From NCBI GenBank assembly GCA_964106915.2, contig OZ066923.1: a stretch of 64,000 bases of DNA. One strand, written 5' to 3'. The notes under the pieces were generated by a model, which saw nothing but the letters and a program-made list of their open reading frames with translations, made no database searches and had not been told where the DNA came from. Positions within the stretch are counted from its first letter, which is position 1; each line of letters begins with the position of its first letter. Positions 2,057 to 63,209 of this stretch are shown one piece after another. A program made the translations under genes and the position numbers. The stretch is from Podarcis gaigeae. Lineage: Eukaryota.

Positions 2057-3202
2057 TGTGACAAGCTGTGCTGGGGCCAAGAGAGTGAAGGACAGGTTGT
2101 CAGAGATGGATTGGAGGAGTAATGGGGAGGAGCTTAGCTCCATAACTTTTTTCAGAGCAGGAACAATGATATCATCTGCCAGAGTGCCAGTGTCAGGGAC
2201 TGTGCTGAGGAGGGCTACAATGAGGAGCTATGGTGGGTGCTGCCTCCTCCCCCGACCCTGAATCTCACCAGGAGCAGGAGGGCAGTATAGATTTAGAACA
2301 GTGGTTTCCAGAGGGGCATAGATCAGAAGGGAAAAGCTGGGAAATACAGCTAGATGAAGAGCAGCTAGGAGAAGAAACACACTGGAAGAGAGAGGGTTAA
2401 CAGATTCACAGTCGTTGGAGAGCATCCCCCTTCCCCCCTCCCCATGTTCTAGGAGAGCTGAAAAAGTTACTGAATAGAAAGCAAAGCGGCGTGAAGGTGG
2501 TGTGGATTGAGAGAGGAATGGGTGTAGCCTTAATTGGAAGCACCGCCATTCTTAAAGGGAGACGTTCATTATCCCTTGCTGTGATTATTAAAGAATTCCA
2601 ACCGGTTCACTTTGTTCTGCTTATCTACTGCTGGGGGGGGGGGGAGAGCCAATTCCTTAAAGCCTGACAGCCAGGCAGGTTATTGATGGAGCCCCCTTGC
2701 TCCAGCAAGTGAATGAGGGGATAATGGGGCTTTCCACTTTTCCTATCGTTTGTGACAAAAAGACCGCTTACCCATTTTCCAGGCAACAGCATTTGGTGTG
2801 GCTGCAGGAGAGCTGCCGTGGTTAGCGGGACCTGCTTGCACAGCCTCACTCAGCTGCAGGGGCTGACAGGATTGCCTGCCAAAAATTTAAATATAAAAAG
2901 GACAGTCATGGCCCTAGAGGGCTGGTGGGTGCTTCAGCAATGGACCTGATAGAGCCAGTCTTCAGTCAGGTCCACTTCTGGGGCATACAAGCTGACTGGG
3001 CTGTGAATAGCCAGCACAGCCAGGAATTGGACGTCTCGCCCACCCTCTATGTTGTGGTTATTCCCAAAGGTAAGCAGGCAGTGCATGTGGGTGGCCTTGC
3101 TGTTGAATTACTCAGTTGCTGTATTCAGGGCCAGGGAGGAATTTGCCTGCAGATGAATTGAGCCTATCTGGGGTTTTTGCCTTCCTCATAGCAACTGTCA
3201 CA
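2057..3202 (+). mobile_element. Older LTR-like element hosting a nested solo LTR
   Basis: Inverted termini TGTGACA...TGTCACA; TATAAAA at 2892; interrupted by the TSD-flanked LTR at 2191-2669; no TSD of its own found. Confidence 0.45.
2191..2669 (+). mobile_element. Solo LTR (Gypsy-like) with decayed acidic U3 ORF
   Basis: TGTCAGG...CCTGACA termini; perfect 5-bp TSD GCCAG; homologous to 46951-47457. Confidence 0.85.
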
Positions 3203-3872: not shown

Positions 3873-4437
3873 TGTCATGGGTCCTGTCCATGGAAAACAC
3901 ACCATCACCTTCTCAAAAACAGTGATGTGCAACTGATGGTCTCAGGGGCTGGTCTGGATCGGAAGATTGGGGAATGCAATCGCAGGAAGATCGGATCCTA
4001 ACAGAAGAGGAGGGTGAATATTCACACCTCCCCCCTTTGCTTCCCACATTTCCAGAAGCAGGGAGACAGAATCTGCACAGTTGAGAGAGGACCTAGCTAG
4101 CTTTGAGATAGTAGCTAAGCAATCAGAAGGGAGGAAGCAACTGGGTGATACATCAGTTGAGAGTGTGTGTGGGGGGAACCCCCTCCCTCCCCCCGAACTA
4201 GGAGGTCTGAGCATGTCAGAGAACAAAGGAGACGCGGGGGGGGGGGACTCCCCATTGGCACGCTTCTTGCTGCGGAAGTGGGGAGGAGTCATAATAGGCA
4301 ACTGATATCCTTGCGGAGAGTTGCCTGTTTGTGCTTGTAACAGAATGCTGTAATAAAAAGACTATAAAGCTACCAAATGCTCATTAATTCTTATCAGTGA
4401 GCCACCGGAAGGGAGAGGGGAACTCCTGTACATGACA
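3873..4437 (+). mobile_element. Solo LTR (Gypsy-like) with decayed acidic U3 ORF
   Basis: TGTCATG...CATGACA termini; AATAAA near 4352; translates ASFEIV..KQLGDTSVESV..PPPSPRTRRSEHVREQRRR across a frameshift; TSD not evident. Confidence 0.7.
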
Positions 4438-5392: not shown

Positions 5393-5981
5393 CTCAGTGT
5401 TCCTAGGGGAGTACTAAGTGCTGCTCTATAGACACAAGATCCTGGTCTCCTAATGGCACTCAGGAGTCATTGTATGTCAGCCTGATCAATTCATGCTCAC
5501 TCCAACATGAACACACATTGGCTACATTCCACTGGTACTTTATTCCGTTTTCCTGACATTTTCATACCTCTTAATTTTCAGATTTTATGTGATCTTTCTA
5601 TTGGAAATCTAGTGCAATCTAGCAGAAGGTTACCACTAATTTCCAGGTTAATTGTTTCCAGAAAAAAAGATTTGCTTAACTCGAAAAATCACAAGAATTT
5701 TCAGTTTTAAGTTCCCCACCACTCATGTGGCAAAAATTGGGGCGGTATCCCAGCATGCAGTCCTTCCCTGCCATTTAAAAGTTAGTGCAAGGAATGTTAG
5801 AAATCAGAACAGGAAGAGCTAACATTACAACCTAGCACAATAAATCCCATGTTGGAATACAGCCATTGTTTAGAATAGCCCATTGGATGATATGTTCTCA
5901 AATCTGTCCCTACAGATGGAGGAACCTTGAAGGGGTTTATTCACACATGGGGTTTATTGCATTAGTTTTACTTATTATAAT

Positions 5982-6285
5982 GGTAAAGGTAAAGGTAAAG
6001 GATCCCTGACAGTTAAGTCCAGTCGCAGACGACTCTGAGGTTGCGGCGCTCATCTTGCTTTACAGGCTGAAGGAGCCGAAATTTGTCTGCAGACAGTTTT
6101 TCCGGGTCATGTGGCCAGCATGACTAAGCCGCTTCTGGGGCAACGGAACACCGAAACCAGAGCAGCGCATGGAAACACCATTTACCTTCCTGCTGGAGTG
6201 GTACCTATTTTTCTACTTGCACTGGCGTGTTTTCGAAGTGCTAGGTTAGCAGGAGTTGGGACCGAGCAACGGGAGCTCACCCTGT
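5982..6285 (-). mobile_element. Sauria (Squam1) SINE, 5'-truncated
   Basis: (AAAGGT)n tail and typical body GGGTCATGTGGCCAGCATGACTAAGCCGCTTCTGG; head missing next to a MITE. Confidence 0.92.
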
Positions 6286-6294
6286 GATGATAGC

Positions 6295-21000: not shown

Positions 21001-21616
21001 GTAATGTAGAACATATCATAGCTTCCCACCCCCCTTTGACTAATTTCTAGCTCTGGGCTTTATTCTTTACAACATTGCTTCTATGACTGCTGGCTTGTGG
21101 AACCTTTCTGGGCCCGGTTGGCTTCTCAGCTGCATAAGGCATACTCCAGTCTCTTAACCATAAGAAGAAAGAATTGCCTGCAGCTCAGCCTAGTCTGAGT
21201 GGCACATATGGCAATTGATTAACTACATGCGCTATCAGAGAATTTCAGCTACATTTGCCTGTTCGTTAATTATCTTTTCTCTTAACCTCCGATAGTCAAA
21301 TGCTCAAATGGAGTTCCGGATCTACTTCGGTGTCGAAACTGGTGTCGGAATGCATGCCCTTTTTAAGATGAAGGGAATACACAAAGGGTTGGAAGGCCCC
21401 CCTACTAGCATCCTCATGTCAAGGTACTTTTCTTGGGTCGTCCCCCCCCCCCAAGTATAGATTGTGGCAACCCATTACATGGACAGAAGAGTGTAGAGTT
21501 TATGCAGTAATGTGGCTAATCCATGCACATCTGTTAATTGTCAAATCATTTATTCAGGTACTCAGAGAAGTCTAGGACACTCAGTAAGGACTTGTTCCTC
21601 CTCTCCTTCCTTTAAT

Positions 21617-21939
21617 GTAAAGGTAAAGGTAAAGGGATCCCTGACCATTAGGTCCAGTCGTGACCGACTCTCATCTTGCTTTATTGGCCGAGGGAGCCTG
21701 CGTACAGCTTCTGGGTCATGTGGCCAGCATGATTAAGCCGCTTCTGGCGAACCAGAGCAGCGCACGGAAACGCCATTTACCTTCCCGCTGGAGCGGTACC
21801 TATTGATCTACTTGCACTTTGACCTGCTTTTGAACTGCTAGGTTGGCAGGAACAGGGACCGAGCAACGGGAGCTCACCCTGTCGCGGGGATTCGAACTGC
21901 CGACCTTCTGATCAGCAAGTCCTAGGCTCTGTGGTTTAA
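21617..21939 (-). mobile_element. Sauria SINE, slightly 5'-truncated
   Basis: (AAAGGT)n tail; B-box GGATTCGAAC on the minus strand. Confidence 0.95.
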
Positions 21940-37160: not shown

Positions 37161-37328
37161 ATTTACAAAGGACATCCCTCTCTTTGAAGGGCTGCCTGGT
37201 CCAAGTCTGGTTTAAAGCTCAAGAACCAAATGGTGGTGGAGTCTTGCTTGCCCATCACTGTTAACACCCAGAGAGCAAGCTGAGCAGGAACAGAGATCAG
37301 CTGGTCAAAGCCTTCCAATACAGATGTA

Positions 37329-38440
37329 AGGTAAAGGTAAGGGTACCCCGGCCCGTACGGGCCAGTCGTGTCCGACTCTGGGGTTGCACGCCCATCTCGC
37401 TTAAGAGGCCGGGAGCCAGCGCTGTCCGCAGACACTTCCGGGTCACGTGGCCAGCGTGACAAGCTGCATCTGGCGAGCCAGCGTAGCACACAGAAACGCC
37501 GTTTACCTTCCCACTAGTAAGCGGTCCCTATTTATCTACTTTTATATGCCTGTTGTCTTTGTCCATGGAGTTTTCTTGGCAGGGATACTGGAGTGGCTTG
37601 CCGGTTCCTGCTCCAGGTGGATCACGTTTGGTCAAAACTCTCCACTATGACCTGTTCATCTTGGGTGCCCTGCTCGGCATAGTTCATAGCTTCTCTGAGT
37701 TCTTCAAGCCCCTTCGCCACGGCAAGGCAGTGATCCATGAAGGGGAAGAAAACTGAAAACTGGGTTAAATGTAAACTCTCTTGCTATTAGGGATATATTC
37801 TCTACTCAGCATGCACCGGCAACTCCCATTCACACGCAATGAGGAAAGAATAATTCCCAAAAGGGTTTTGGTGTTTTTTTTAAGGCTAAGAACCTTTCAT
37901 CGCTGTAAGGAAGATGCACAGAGATGCCTTTGTTTCTATGCGCAGGCAGACATTTGCCAACTTCTTCCCTGGGCCCTGGGAGTCTCCTCATGGTAACTTA
38001 TGGCTTTACCCAATTTTCCTAGAAGTCCCCCTGGTGTGTTTCTAATTGATGATATATGCTGAGACTGAATTAAACAATGCAGGTGGGAAATACAAAATGC
38101 AGTGTTCCAAACTTTTACTTTCATAAATGATGCCAGGTTTTTTTTCATATATACTTTTTGACCAAACTTTTTGACCAAACTTTTTGACCAAACTGCGGGA
38201 GGCAGTGGAGGACAGAGGTGCCTGGCGTTCTCTGGTCCATGGGGTCACGAAGAGTCGGACACGACTAAACGACTAAACAAATTTATCTACTTGCACCTGG
38301 GGGTGCTTTCAAACTGTTAGGTTGGCAAGCGCTGGGACCGAGCAACGGGAGCGCATCCTGCCGCGGGGATTCGAACCGCCGACCTGACGATCAGCAAGTC
38401 CTAGGCGCTGAGGTTTTACTCACAGCACCACCCGCGTCCC
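37329..38440 (-). mobile_element. Full-length Sauria SINE interrupted by a BovB-derived insertion
   Basis: TSD AATACAGATGTA at 37317-37328 and 38442-38453; the two halves rejoin at ATTTATCTACTT. Confidence 0.93.
37542..38280 (+). mobile_element. Chimeric BovB insertion: inverted BovB 5' end + ~400 bp unique DNA + BovB 3' end
   Basis: 12-bp TSD ATTTATCTACTT; 37553-37746(-) matches the BovB 5' region; 38184-38280(+) matches the BovB 3' end at 57433. Confidence 0.85.
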
Positions 38441-40030: not shown

Positions 40031-40381
40031 CAGTTTGCAATGGAATCAGGTAGACTGAGGTTTGTGGGAGCCGAGGTATCCAAAAATAGCCAAACACCTT
40101 TTTTTTATTTGACTAATTTCATTTACGCCTCGCTTCCCACAAAATATCCTAAGAAATATATCCTATATATACATATCCCATCTGAAGCCTGAAAATACAA
40201 TTACAGACTGGGATAAAAAAAAAAAATCTACTTAAAAGGCTTCCCACTTTTTTTGCCGGGGGTGGGTGGGTGGGTTAAAATGACTCACCAGGAAGATATT
40301 CAGATGGAGCCAAAATAGAAATAAATGGACATTTAAGAGATAAGGGCAATATAGGGACAGGGACATAGGAAGCTGCCTTAT

Positions 40382-40910
40382 GGGCAGGTGCCCAAAGAGG
40401 TGGATGTGTGGGCAGTAGAGGCAGTTGAGGAGGAAGATTCATGAGGAGCCAAGGACTTGTGGGGAGATGTGCCCCCCATGAGGAAGGTACCGGCGGTGGA
40501 AGAGGGGACCCAGGAGGAGAATATTGGGTATCCAGAAATGGGATAAGGAGACTGGAGAAGAGGCATGGCTTTGGAAATCCCTATGTGTCCGCCCCCCCCC
40601 CCCCGCCCCCATTGTCTCTGAGCTCAAGGGGGGGCTTGAAGGCCAGGAAGAGCTAGAGTTGCCATTAAGGAGTAACCATTGAGTGCTTGAGCACACTGCA
40701 TCAGGCAAGGGAGTTTAAGAAGGCAGGAGAGGGTGGGGCCAGGCTGTTGCTTCAACTGTCTGACAGGGAACACAAGCCTGCAGCTAGTTAGCGCGGAGTC
40801 CTGTTATTTTCACTTGCATGTTAGGAGCTGATGTAGCTGAGTGCTTTGCTAATAAAGAACTAAAAATCCAGCCGCTCATCCTCATTGGTCTGGGCATATT
40901 CGGGACATCA
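40382..40910 (+). mobile_element. Solo LTR-like element (5' end missing) with acidic U3 ORF relic, lying within a Squam3 SINE
   Basis: AATAAA at 40851; ends in ACATCA; acidic frame followed by PPLSLSSRGGLK; splits SINE parts 40363-40381 and 40911-41038. Confidence 0.6.
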
Positions 40911-46950: not shown

Positions 46951-47457
46951 TGTCAGGCTTCAGGGAAATCCGATCCTGCCCACGGTGGGCAGCCAAGAAT
47001 TAGATAAACAAGAAGAGTTCTTACCAAGTCTTTTAGTCAATATTCACAGAGAGAGGTGTCTAAATGCAGCCTCTTTGGTAATTGTGTTGCTCCGAGTAAA
47101 GCCCCATCCCCTCCGTCTCTCCTATTATACGTCATCCCTTCGTTGGCTGATCTGTGCTTTCGGCCTCTGAGCTTTCAGTTCTCCTACTTTCATTGCCTGC
47201 TGAGTTCTGGGATGGGGTGGGGTGGGGTCTGGGATGCTTTCTAAAGACAATGAGTCTGTCAGCTGTTTCTCCCCTGGTGGTGCTTCTTCTTCTTCCTGCT
47301 CCTCTCCCAATATCTCCCAGCTTCTCCCCTCTGCAGCCTCTGAAGTGTGACCTTCTGCAAACCACTGTTCTAAATCTACACTGTCTCCCTCTTCTCTGGG
47401 AAGTGCAGGAAGAGGAGGGATGGTCTCCACCATACCTCCTTAGTCCAGTCCCTGACA
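46951..47457 (-). mobile_element. Solo LTR (Gypsy-like) containing an open 102-aa U3 ORF (47125-47433)
   Basis: TGTCAGG...CCTGACA termini; TSD CTTCC/TTTCC; homologous to 2191-2669. Confidence 0.85.
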
Positions 47458-47699: not shown

Positions 47700-47975
47700 T
47701 AATCTAACCCTGTCCTGGAGGGCCCTCCTGACCACCCCCCTTGGTCACTCAAGTCTCCTGTCTCTATCATCTCCCAGCTCGTTCCTTCTGCTGACTGCTC
47801 CTCAATGTCCCACCACCAGGTTCCAGGCTCTAAGGTGTCATCTTTGGATTTGTCCCTGGGAGGGCCTTGGGAGACAGGCCTCCACCAGTCTTCTTCATCC
47901 AGCCAGTCTGAGCTGTCCCTGGGTTGTTCTTGAGCTGGTGGCTCCCACCACTTCCCATCCAGCCTGGCCCTGATA
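47700..47975 (-). mobile_element. Truncated LTR of the acidic-U3-ORF group
   Basis: Starts T(A)TCAGGG; open frame WWEPP..WWRPV..WWWDIEEQSAEGTSWEM. Confidence 0.65.
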
Positions 47976-52190: not shown

Positions 52191-52551
52191 AAAGGTAGAG
52201 ATAAAGGACCCCTGAGTGGTTAAGTCCAGTCAAAGGTGACTTTGGGGTTGTGGTGCTCATCTCGCTTTCAGGCCAGGGAAGCCAGCGTTTGTCCACAGAC
52301 AGCTTTCTGGGTCATGCGGCCAGCATGACTAAACTGCTTCAGGTGCAACAGAACACCATGATGGAAGCCAAAGTGCATGGAAATGCCATTTGCCTTTCCA
52401 CCACAGTGGTACCTATTTATCTACTTGCACTGGTGTGGGAGCTGGGACAGAGCAACAGGAGCTCACTCTGTCATGGGGACTGGAACTGCTGACCTTCTGA
52501 TCAGCAAGCCCAAGAGGCTCAGTGGTTTAGACCATAGTGCCACCCGCATCC
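52191..52551 (-). mobile_element. Sauria SINE (older, more diverged copy)
   Basis: Body and head recognisable; degenerate TSD ACACACT(C/T)CCCCA. Confidence 0.88.
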
Positions 52552-54714: not shown

Positions 54715-55490
54715 TTATGATGATGATTTTTGACCCCACCCATCTGGCTGGGTCTCCCCAGCCAGTCTGGGTGGCTTCCACACATATAAAGGTAAAGGTA
54801 AAGGGACCCCTGACCATTAGATCCAGTCGTGACCGACTCTGGGGTTACGGCGCTCATCTCGCTTTATTGGCCGAGGGAGCCGGCGTACAGCTTCCGGGTC
54901 ATGTGGCCAGCATGACTATGCCACTTCTGGCGAACCAGAGCAGTGCACGGAAATGCCGTTTACCTTCCTGCCGGAGTGGTACCTATTTATCTACTTGCAC
55001 TTTGACGTGCTTTCAAACTGCTCTAGGTTGGCAGGAGCAGAGACCGAGAAACGGAGCTCACCCTGTCGCAGGGATTCGAACCGCCAACCTTCTGATCGGC
55101 AAGTCCTAGGCTCTGTGGTTTAATCCACAGCACCACCCACGTCCCTTCCCACACATATAGAAACATAATAAAATATCAAACTTTAAAAATGTCCCAATAT
55201 GGGCTACCTTCAGGTGTCTTCCAAAAGTTGTGTAGTTCTTTATCTCTTTGACAACTGATGGGAGGGTGTTCCTGGGCCAGTGTAACTACTGAGAAGGCCC
55301 TCTGTAACATCACTTCTTGCAATGAGGGAACCACCAGAAGGCCCTTGGATCTAGACCTCAGTGTCTGGGCTGAACCATGTGGGTGGAAATGCTCCTTCAG
55401 GTATACAAGACCAAGGCTGTTTAGGACTTTAAAGGTCAGCATCAAAACTTTGAATTGTGCTTGGAAACGTACTGGGAGCAAGCGTAGATC
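54715..55490 (-). mobile_element. L2 LINE 3' fragment with a nested Sauria SINE
   Basis: ORF 55176-55481(-) LPVRFQAQFKVLMLTFKVLNSLG.VYLKE..LRS..RAFSVV. Confidence 0.88.
54789..55145 (-). mobile_element. Full-length Sauria SINE
   Basis: (AAAGGT)n tail through to the GGGAC head; TSD TTCC(C)ACACATATA. Confidence 0.95.
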
Positions 55491-57956: not shown

Positions 57957-58462
57957 TACTGGAATGAAGAGGAGGAGGAATGGTGGGGATCACCCCGCCT
58001 TCTCCTGTAGCTTCGAGAGAGGAAGAAGGCAGTCTCAAATTATAGCAGGGCTTTGAGGAAGATAACAGCTCAGAGACAGGTGAACAGCAGAATTATGAGG
58101 TGTTAGGAGAAGGAGGAGAGGAGGCAGAGCAGCTAGCTGACATGTCACTGGACAGCATAATTGACCCACCTTCTCCCAATACGTGGCATTCGTTAAGGGT
58201 GCAAGAACAAAGGGCACAAAGACAATTGTCCACAAGTGAATGCCGTAGAGTCAGGTGTTGTTGCTAGAAGGGAAAGGGGAGGAGCTCAGTGCGAGCAACG
58301 CCATCATGGAGGAATGACTGGATTTCTTGCCTTTCACCATGTTGACTGAATAAAATAATAAGTAAGCACTTTCTTGTTTCCTGTTGGATTGGCTGTTGCT
58401 GCCAATCCTGCCAGTGTTGGTTCATGGGAGCTGGCAGCAGTGGAAGCTCAGCCTTAATGACC
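57957..58462 (+). mobile_element. Degenerate solo LTR of the acidic-U3-ORF group
   Basis: Translates REEEGSLKL*QGFEE..QNYEVLGE..EQLADMSLDSIIDPPSPNTWHSLRVQEQRAQR; AATAAA near 58349. Confidence 0.7.
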
Positions 58463-58687: not shown

Positions 58688-58951
58688 CAAAAACTGCAGC
58701 AATTAGCACTTCCATTTCCGTTCATGTGATTTTCTCTAACATCCCTATGCTGGATAACGCTGCTCTCCATGTTCCTAGTGGAGTTATAGAACAACTGAAG
58801 ACAGCATTGGCAGAACCGAAGTGAGGGAGGTAACCCTGCTAATCTGAACATGCCTTATTTGTGAAGGCAACACAAATTCTGTTATGAATAGAGGTGAGAG
58901 ACTCAAACAGAGATGAAGAGACACAATTAAGTAAGGACTAACGTGAAAGGA

Positions 58952-59303
58952 GGGACGCGGGTGGCACTGTGGGTTAAACCACAGAGCCTATGACTTGCCG
59001 ATCAGAAAGTTGGCGGTTCAAATCCCCATGATGGGGTGAGCTCCCGTTGCTCGGTCCCTGCTCCTGCCAACCTAGCAGTTCGAAAGCATGTCAAAGTGCA
59101 AGTAGATAAATAGGTACCACTCCGGTGGGAAGGTAAACGGCGTTTCCGCGCGCTGCCCTGGTTCGCCAGAAGCGGCTTAGTCATGCTGGCCACATGACCA
59201 GCTGTATGCTGGCTCCCTCGGCCAATAAAGCGAGATGAGCGCCACAACCCCAGAGTTGGCCACGACTGGACCTAATGGTCAGGGGTCCCTTTACCTTTAC
59301 CTT
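58952..59303 (+). mobile_element. Full-length Sauria SINE
   Basis: GGGACGCGGGTGGC head; (ACCTTT)n tail; TSD CTAAC(G/A)TGAAAGGA. Confidence 0.96.
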
Positions 59304-59439
59304 CTAACATGAAAGGAAGTAAGTGACCACCAATACTGGGCAACCCAGCTGACTACCAGGCAGAAATCATTGTCAGGCAGGTTGGTTACTAAAATCCCAG
59401 GACATCTGCAAAGCATTCAGAGAGTAAGATCTTTTGTTA

Positions 59440-61935: not shown

Positions 61936-62299
61936 GGGGACGCAGGTGGCGCTGTGGGTTAAAGCCTCAGCGCCTAGGACTTGCCGATCGAAAGGTCGGC
62001 GGTTCGAATCCCTGCGGCGGGGTGCGCTCCCGCTGCTCGGTCCCAGCGCCTGCCAACCTAGCAGTTCGAAAGCACCTCCGGGTGCAAGTAGATAAATAGG
62101 GACCGCTTACCAGCGGGAAGGTAAACAGCGTTTCCGTGTGCGGCTCTGGCTCGCCAGAGCAGCGATGTCACGCTGGCCACGTGACCCGGAAGTGTCTCTG
62201 GACAGCGCTGGCCCCTGGCCTCTTGAGTGAGATGGGCGCACAACCCCAGAGTCTGTCAAGACTGGCCCGTACGGGCAGGGGTACCTTTACCTTTACCTT
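61936..62299 (+). mobile_element. Full-length Sauria SINE (same subfamily as 37329)
   Basis: TSD TACCACTGTAACTC at 61922-61935 and 62300-62313. Confidence 0.96.
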
Positions 62300-63209
62300 T
62301 ACCACTGTAACTCATTCATTGCTTGACAGTTCAGGATGCTGCTGTAATTCATATTTATTCTAATCTTAGGACTGCATCCAATGAGTATCTCTGTTTTAAG
62401 AGGAAGTGTTTCTTCTGGTCGTTTGAGTCAAGCTACCCAATACTCATCAATCCCACCTACCGACTAAATTACCTAGAGGGACCCCTAACACTTAGGAGCA
62501 GTTTGGGAGGGATGACAGGGGTAATCAGTGAAAACTGAGTGTCCCAACTTGCATGAGCTTAAGTTCTTTTCAGAAAGAACTTAAGTCCTCAACAAGAAAG
62601 GCAAAGCCACAACAGGATGCAACAATTCTCCATATCAGATCCCCTTGATGGTCTTGGTCTGACCCCACGTTGCTGCTTTTCTTGAACTTCTGCTTATATG
62701 CTTCCACCTAACTGACAAAATATAGGAAGCTTCAGCAGTGGAGACAGCCCAATAAATAGTTTTCCACCTCCTTTCTGAGCATATACATCTAACCACAAGC
62801 ATATGCTGTTTTTGGAGAGCAAGAATAGGGAGACAATAGGTTTGTGGGACCTAATTTGATTTATGCTAGAACACTTAAGTTCTAATAACTCGAAGCCAGA
62901 TGCAAACAACTGGCTGGAGGTGGAGCCAGATACAAATGAGTGTCTCAGCTTGCGGAGTCCATTATCTATTGCACCCGATGATCCATACACTGGGATGACC
63001 TGCTTGAACAATACATGTGAATTACTACAAATCTGGGATTCTCATTTGGAATGGGGGTAAGAGCTTAAGAGCCTCACTGGATCATGTCAAAGGTCCATCT
63101 AGCCCCACTTCCTGTTCTCTCCATAGCCAGCAACATGCTCAGAGAAATGCTGCAAGCAGGACCTGACAGCACTCTCCCAACTTGTAATTTTAGTCCAGAG
63201 GCATATATT

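Follow-up and report, generated by a model that had tools for sequence, protein, structure and literature searches.

The U3-encoded peptide of abundant lizard LTRs: a C-terminal Pol tail of a chromodomain Ty3/gypsy element and possible nucleosome tether

What kind of protein, if any, is encoded in the U3 of the LTR at positions 46951..47457 (minus strand) of the 64-kb stretch of Podarcis gaigeae contig OZ066923.1 that was analyzed here (the window)? A preliminary description, made from the sequence without database searches, had read an acidic peptide in five, possibly six, diverged LTR copies and had proposed a self-standing LTR protein resembling nef or sag. The window contains five or six LTR relics of the focal superfamily. 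The focal copy is a solo LTR of family c1 with 7 bp inverted ends (TGTCAGG..CCTGACA) and a 5 bp target duplication in which four of the five bases match. The others are a solo LTR of family c2 (2191..2669, plus strand) with an exact 5 bp duplication, GCCAG; a c3 relic (57958..58382, plus) with decayed or truncated ends; a solo LTR of family c4 (3940..4437, plus), in whose duplication four of five bases match; and the 5' part of a c5 LTR (47700..47975, minus), which has an apparent in-frame repeat of its WW unit and lacks the 3' part. An old LTR-like relic assigned to family c6 (40380..40909, plus, ends approximate) retains only an SP-RR..EQ block that is recognizable. With nhmmer the focal copy matches 2191-2669 (E 7e-31) and 57973-58395 (E 2e-22). 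Between 46951 and 47975, LTRs of two different families share a strand, with a gap of about 240 bases between them. The window also carries a dispersed family beginning GTAAAGGTAAAGG, which we take to be Sauria SINE-like, at 5971-6289, 21606-21939, 37302-37541, 52204-52526, 54775-55146, 58951-59329 and 61957-62301.

A genome search with the focal LTR gave 2,367 DNA candidates, 40 of which were scored, and whole copies are 80-87% identical; a peptide search gave 5,753 protein candidates, with 150 scored. Focal-type copies are spread over many contigs. Among the 16 with both ends, the 5 bp target duplication is exact in seven and matches at four or more of the five bases in 13, and the flanks have nothing in common between copies except widespread repeats; these copies are therefore solo LTRs. 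The earlier suggestion that solo LTRs scatter the peptide through the genome holds, and so do LTR identity, U3 position and Ty3/gypsy lineage.

The same peptide layout had been reported from separate LTR relics, and its blocks are present at the places given, but the WW and acidic blocks had been joined across frames at 47457, 2191 and 57957. In natural copies (L004, L075, L085, L090 and L094, among others) these blocks occur in one frame free of stops, so that the layout is no artifact and it is frameshifts that have disrupted the window copies. In the focal copy the frame runs on the minus strand from LTR base 2 to a TAA at 47127-47125 (47125..47456) and is disrupted by a frameshift in a proline-codon tract after the WW block. 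The fourth copy, said to start from 3873, spans 3940-4437 instead. A profile built from 17 natural copies gives 13-97 bits for five window copies and at most 0 bits on 10 locally shuffled windows, although these scores are partly circular because relatives of the window copies built the profile; the non-circular support for the peptide is provided by the selection tests. Five of the proposed copies stand. The sixth (40382), which has no profile match, is weakly supported: it and at least four of its relatives contain a PP-L-S-x-x-x-RR-GLK..EQ block visible by eye.

In the focal family and three sister families one frame stays free of stops from LTR base 2 onward, over about 105-133 codons. When stops were counted per alignment column within each family, the first family-wide stop in this frame was at base 320 in c1 (56 copies), 335 in c2 (30 copies) and 401 in c4 (30 copies). 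A single half-filled column shifted the phase of c3, whose openness rests on individual copies and on dN/dS, and the c5 start was off register. Other sense frames are blocked early in the families, with the exception of the base-1 frame, which is open in c1 alone. An ATG-initiated frame from LTR base 1 was rejected as a candidate, being blocked in c2-c4 and without selection. In 20,000 base shuffles of one U3, a 110-codon open frame arose in 0.5% of cases in a given frame and in 1.4% in any sense frame. In solo LTRs the frame is upstream of a TATA-like box (47124..47129, minus strand, in the focal copy), which overlaps the stop codons closing the frame and whose putative promoter role is drawn by analogy with the spacing in the young relative L208.

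Between families the base-2 frame evolved under purifying selection. From DNA alignments of 25 copies per family, pairwise counting by the Nei-Gojobori method (net between-family values, bootstrap intervals) gave dN/dS of 0.17 for c1-c2 (95% 0.08-0.33), 0.15 for c1-c3 (0.10-0.39) and 0.36 for c1-c4 (0.21-0.76), compared with 0.72-1.38 in the other sense frames; the coding constraint that had been suspected, and for which this comparison had been recommended, is therefore real. Synonymous sites are saturated in the c2-c3 pair. The antisense frame that has third positions in common shows 0.37-0.60, which is only the expected echo. Past the stop codon dN/dS is around 0.4-2, and since the bootstrap P (ratio of 1 or more) falls below 0.03 in two of 24 after-stop controls and below 0.05 in two more, this control region is noisy. 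A third-position bias in one frame contradicts purine-rich composition as the sole cause of the similarity, which had been named as a way in which the proposal might fail.

Variation within families indicates where this selection acts. Non-CpG nonsynonymous and synonymous variants number 179/33 (private) versus 26/23 (shared) in c1 (p=8.6e-6) and 151/43 versus 27/28 in c2 (p=7.3e-5), a skew that is absent from other frames; c4 has no such skew (183/65 versus 26/9, p=1). Private variants are thus mostly nonsynonymous and shared variants about half synonymous, and therefore selection operates in the active parents while inserted copies decay, single copies doing so neutrally. The CpG-type decay remarked on earlier is evident. 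Nearly all alternatives at the arginine positions of the motif are of CpG-decay types. Shared indels are few, with two of four being multiples of three in length, and the corresponding private counts are 26 of 71, 12 of 36 and 12 of 49.

The position of the frame relative to pol is informative. A search pattern of purines before the LTR start gave seven matches with a polypurine tract (PPT), and upstream of the PPT are an SH3-like GPF region and a chromodomain (Pfam PF24626) that keeps its aromatic residues. The frame from the chromodomain reads E-G-G/S-D across the PPT and V-R-D-W where it passes into the LTR. Of seven focal-type loci that retain a chromodomain remnant, six show this continuity (L159, L166, L167, L176, L177 and L207, of which L166 and L207 may represent a single old duplication); the seventh, L323, is out of frame. 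All focal-type loci are truncated relics with only RNaseH-IN and IN-end remnants (L332, L326), and nine longer stretches (of 17) around focal-type PPT junctions yielded no full-length element, so that the pol link of the focal family itself rests on truncated relics. Of 12 3' LTRs picked across an integrase tree (elements of the P. gaigeae genome only; 53 rows, 36 different), some of them belonging to one lineage, 10 have the base-2 frame as the longest of their frames open from the LTR start; tails of distant lineages vary widely and do not align by eye. Five elements (L214, L222, L223, L224 and L225) have 40-100 extra acidic codons between chromodomain and PPT, including repeated F/W-x-x-[IV]-F-E-[ET]-T-D blocks. 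The notion of a self-standing LTR protein is contradicted by the frame being the in-frame end of Gag-Pol past the chromodomain, and we are highly confident that the U3 peptide is the C-terminal Gag-Pol tail, the final 105-117 codons of that frame, and not a separate gene; the element is probably a Tf1/sushi-type chromovirus.

Younger relatives were found by a genome search with the SH3-like and chromodomain region. L208 has a single unbroken Gag-Pol frame of 1,632 codons, the last 117 of which are inside the 3' LTR, encoding capsid, zinc finger, protease, RT, RNase H, integrase, SH3 and chromo domains (PF00385, PF24626), and the LTR pairs of its sister copies reach 98-99% identity. The full-length provirus called for at the outset to define the internal region thus comes from a young relative and not from the focal family. 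In L208, L209 and L210 gag and pol are in one frame; Tf1/sushi elements outside fission yeast mostly use a -1 frameshift, according to the available part of a preprint (bioRxiv 10.1101/2022.12.06.519325). In five of seven relatives a stretch of 10-13 nt past the 5' LTR is complementary to part of the LTR of the same element, in the young family about 30 bases beyond the TATA-like box, with a matched change in L210, as would suit self-priming; a search for focal-family 5' LTRs with such a site returned four pattern matches, none of them a real LTR. LTR length in the young family (L208-L213, L227) varies through tandem repeats near the 3' end, and a conspicuously large share, by impression, of the best 150 internal-region matches is on the 29.5 Mb contig C32, which would fit a non-recombining sex chromosome.

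In the L208-L210 pair dN/dS is 0.49 for the tail, with 0.26 in the motif part and 0.56 in the acidic part, and 0.89 and 1.37 in the control frames of the tail; on this one young pair constraint is looser in the tail than in the integrase core (0.10). The young tail ends PRRSARL, and RSARL is present in 29 of 30 young copies, a constancy that is inflated as the copies were chosen by similarity to L208. Four RNA runs mapped to L208 gave thin internal coverage (mean depth 0-6), with reads mostly from relatives 90-99% alike, and showed no splice-type joint at this low depth; in two bulk runs nearly all reads were in one orientation, which weakly suggests an unspliced sense RNA. A Podarcis muralis protein, UniRef100_A0A670IJD3, is 95% identical across the chromodomain and the whole L208 tail; it is an automatic model named 'Gypsy retrotransposon integrase-like protein 1' in which the tail is unannotated.

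The order of elements in the tail is common to the focal families: an acidic stretch with the WW block, LxQxF (c1-c3), S-[WYF]-x-x-[LIV] (c1-c5; SWEIL, with a LIR/AIM-like core, at 47308..47322 on the minus strand), L-[ED]-S, prolines, and SP followed by [RK]-[TS]-R-R-[AS]-x-[RK]-V-x-E-Q. The SP-basic motif and the predicted helix occupy 47128..47214 (minus) in the focal copy, where the arginine positions have decayed. Of the HMGN-like core RRS[AS]R[LI], the young family has an exact version, RRSARL, and c1-c4 have the variant RR[AS]x[RK]V; the focal forms RRAL[KR]V and RRA[QE]KV deviate from RRSARL, and short runs of arginine are a frequent occurrence. The motif is absent from the tails of L192, L195, L204, L221, L223 and L225, and several motif-less lineages have polybasic and F/L-x-x-L-x-C-W blocks in its place. 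Basic-aromatic-Cys-Trp-basic blocks are present in the 3' LTR tails of L185, L195, L221, L223 and L225, and three c3 copies (L094, L104 and L106) end in three cysteines ahead of the stop; a lipid or membrane anchor or an import signal is a possible role for these. AlphaFold2 predicts residues 1-81 of a natural copy to be unstructured and residues 82-109 to form a helix, with block pLDDT values of 93-95 over residues 81-100. When 42 residues from a natural focal tail were modeled in complex with H2A-H2B, without alignment, the score was 0.14 against a mark of 0.34, which counts neither for nor against binding. The focal peptide has no meaningful Pfam match and no match among PDB sequences, and its profile found no longer proteins among 7,996 candidates. 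The nine proteins that the profile did find are eight short unnamed ORFs and one P. muralis SPARC gene model (P0011, UniRef100_A0A670IGM5); the latter includes about 39 residues of c2-type LTR peptide, which is probably a gene-model error and possibly an exonization.

A plausible scenario is that the full-length RNA is translated and Gag-Pol is read through the PPT into the 3' LTR, and the tail stays on integrase once protease has cut, as a flexible acidic linker (predicted disorder, then one helix) with a terminal arginine motif. The RR-x-x-R/K motif would then bind the H2A-H2B acidic patch as HMGN does and tether the integration complex to nucleosomes, acting beside a chromodomain with its aromatic residues retained. 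Each transposition copies U3 to both ends, so that a silent copy of the tail is present in every LTR and solo LTR. The chromatin or nuclear targeting role suggested in the preliminary description is accordingly retained as plausible. We put the joint reading, a Pol tail of a chromodomain Ty3/gypsy element acting as a likely nucleosome tether, at about an even chance, and tethering as the main job of the tail, which is suggested by motif, predicted structure and analogy, at somewhat less than that. More tentative still is the proposal that the U3 of lizard chromoviruses encodes a second chromatin-reading module, an HMGN-mimic anchor used with the chromodomain, which would be the animal counterpart of the plant CR motif and be swapped between lineages as LTRs turn over; were this so, promoter and targeting module would evolve as one piece of DNA.

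The Ty1 integrase C-terminus is reportedly a nuclear localization signal, and the lizard Pol tail could similarly serve import, with an acidic spacer leading to basic clusters that form an integrase NLS. In nine of the 12 3' LTRs the second half of the tail has a net basic character, and dense K/R runs are present in L185 and L225, but the focal families are without a dense K/R cluster and keep the specific SP-R-T-RR..V-x-EQ spacing and a predicted helix, and we regard import as unlikely. Next in order is docking of a host protein, either through S-[WYF]-x-x-[LIV] as an ATG8-binding LIR or through LxQWF as an acidic activation-type motif. The first block recurs as WEIL in 31 of 56 c1 and 21 of 30 c2 copies, Y-x-V-L in c3, YEIV or FEIV in c4 and W-x-L-I in c5, and its [WFY]xx[LIV] core matches the LIR consensus given in the available part of PMC7615515 and lies in an acidic stretch predicted to be disordered. 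A four-residue motif is nevertheless frequent by chance and this one is missing from the young-family tail, which makes docking improbable, though it is not exclusive of tethering.

There is little chance that the tail is a separate accessory protein, made from spliced or LTR-driven RNA or released from Pol by protease. Four window copies have a pyrimidine-rich tract with a final AG before the acidic block, and in the young LTR an ATG in the same frame occurs near the start; yet there is no stop between the frame and pol, the pyrimidine tract encodes the proline run, the frame is upstream of the TATA-like box, and the four low-depth RNA runs contained no splice-type joint on L208. The weakest alternative, a functionless read-through peptide whose similarity reflects purine-rich promoter DNA, could accommodate the fast-changing acidic half in the young pair and the distant tails that do not align by eye, but it is largely refuted by the selection tests, as composition or promoter constraint predicts no third-position bias limited to one frame and the antisense frame with the same third positions carries just the echo.

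The constraint on the frame has consequences beyond this locus, as a tether would. LTRs are treated as non-coding; in the very abundant lizard families studied here protein constraint covers about two thirds of the LTR, which affects LTR dating, neutral-rate estimates between subfamilies and gene models that absorb fragments. Should the motif prove to be a nucleosome anchor, it would offer a small testable handle on integration-site choice by vertebrate Ty3/gypsy elements and would inform the job of LTR-encoded integrase tails such as the CR motif. Overlap of pol with the LTR is already known in plant CRM and pufferfish V-clade elements, to judge from the accessible portions of those reports, and the young tail is in UniRef, unannotated; the overlap may be better documented than the literature searched shows. 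We did not find in print selection on the tail or the common layout of acidic linker, SP-RR-x-x-R/K motif and helix. The terms 'ORF' and 'open reading' do not appear in the available part of a study of LTR models that include Sushi (PMC3601003), the corresponding part of PMC11011659 contains nothing on an LTR-overlapping frame, and the mostly open-access literature searched had no account of selection acting on a lizard LTR-encoded tail or of motifs within one, nor any that combined acidic patch, arginine anchor, retrotransposon and integrase.

Comparison with known systems places these elements more closely. Coding sequence overlaps U3 in HIV nef and MMTV sag, which are separate genes on their own mRNAs, whereas the lizard LTR frame is continuous with pol. 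The focal-type elements have the TG..CA LTRs, PPT and 5 bp duplication of Ty3/gypsy chromoviruses, and L208 has the same SH3 and chromodomain at the integrase end as V-clade and Tf1/sushi elements such as Sushi-ichi and Amn-like, the V-clade being the vertebrate chromovirus clade (PMC2774666 and bioRxiv 10.1101/2022.12.06.519325, available parts); self-priming is described for the Tf1/sushi group in the latter, and the putative primer site of the young relatives would be alike. In pufferfish V-clade1 pol partly overlaps the LTR, an overlap that the available part of PMC11117352 only mentions, without length, selection or motif. The acidic-patch anchor of HMGN2 is RRSAR (PMC12487698), and with the motif given for HMGN, Dsup and Dot5 (PMC12487698 and PMC13347269, both as far as available) the young tail agrees exactly in RRSARL, while in the focal families RR-[AS]-x-[RK]-V opens the predicted helix, after an acidic stretch predicted to be disordered; the likeness is at the motif level and not one of homology, and several lizard lineages are without the motif. 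There is also a parallel in layout with plant CRM, in group A of which the polyprotein frame likewise extends into the 3' LTR (PMC3059260, PMC3605345 and PMC12786077, available parts) and in which the targeting CR motif is encoded in the same LTR-overlapping place (PMC3059260). CRM relatives use tRNA primers according to the same sources, whereas five of the seven lizard relatives have a putative self-complementary primer site; and in CRM the CR motif replaces the chromodomain, whereas the lizard elements retain a chromodomain upstream of the PPT and have the LTR module in addition.
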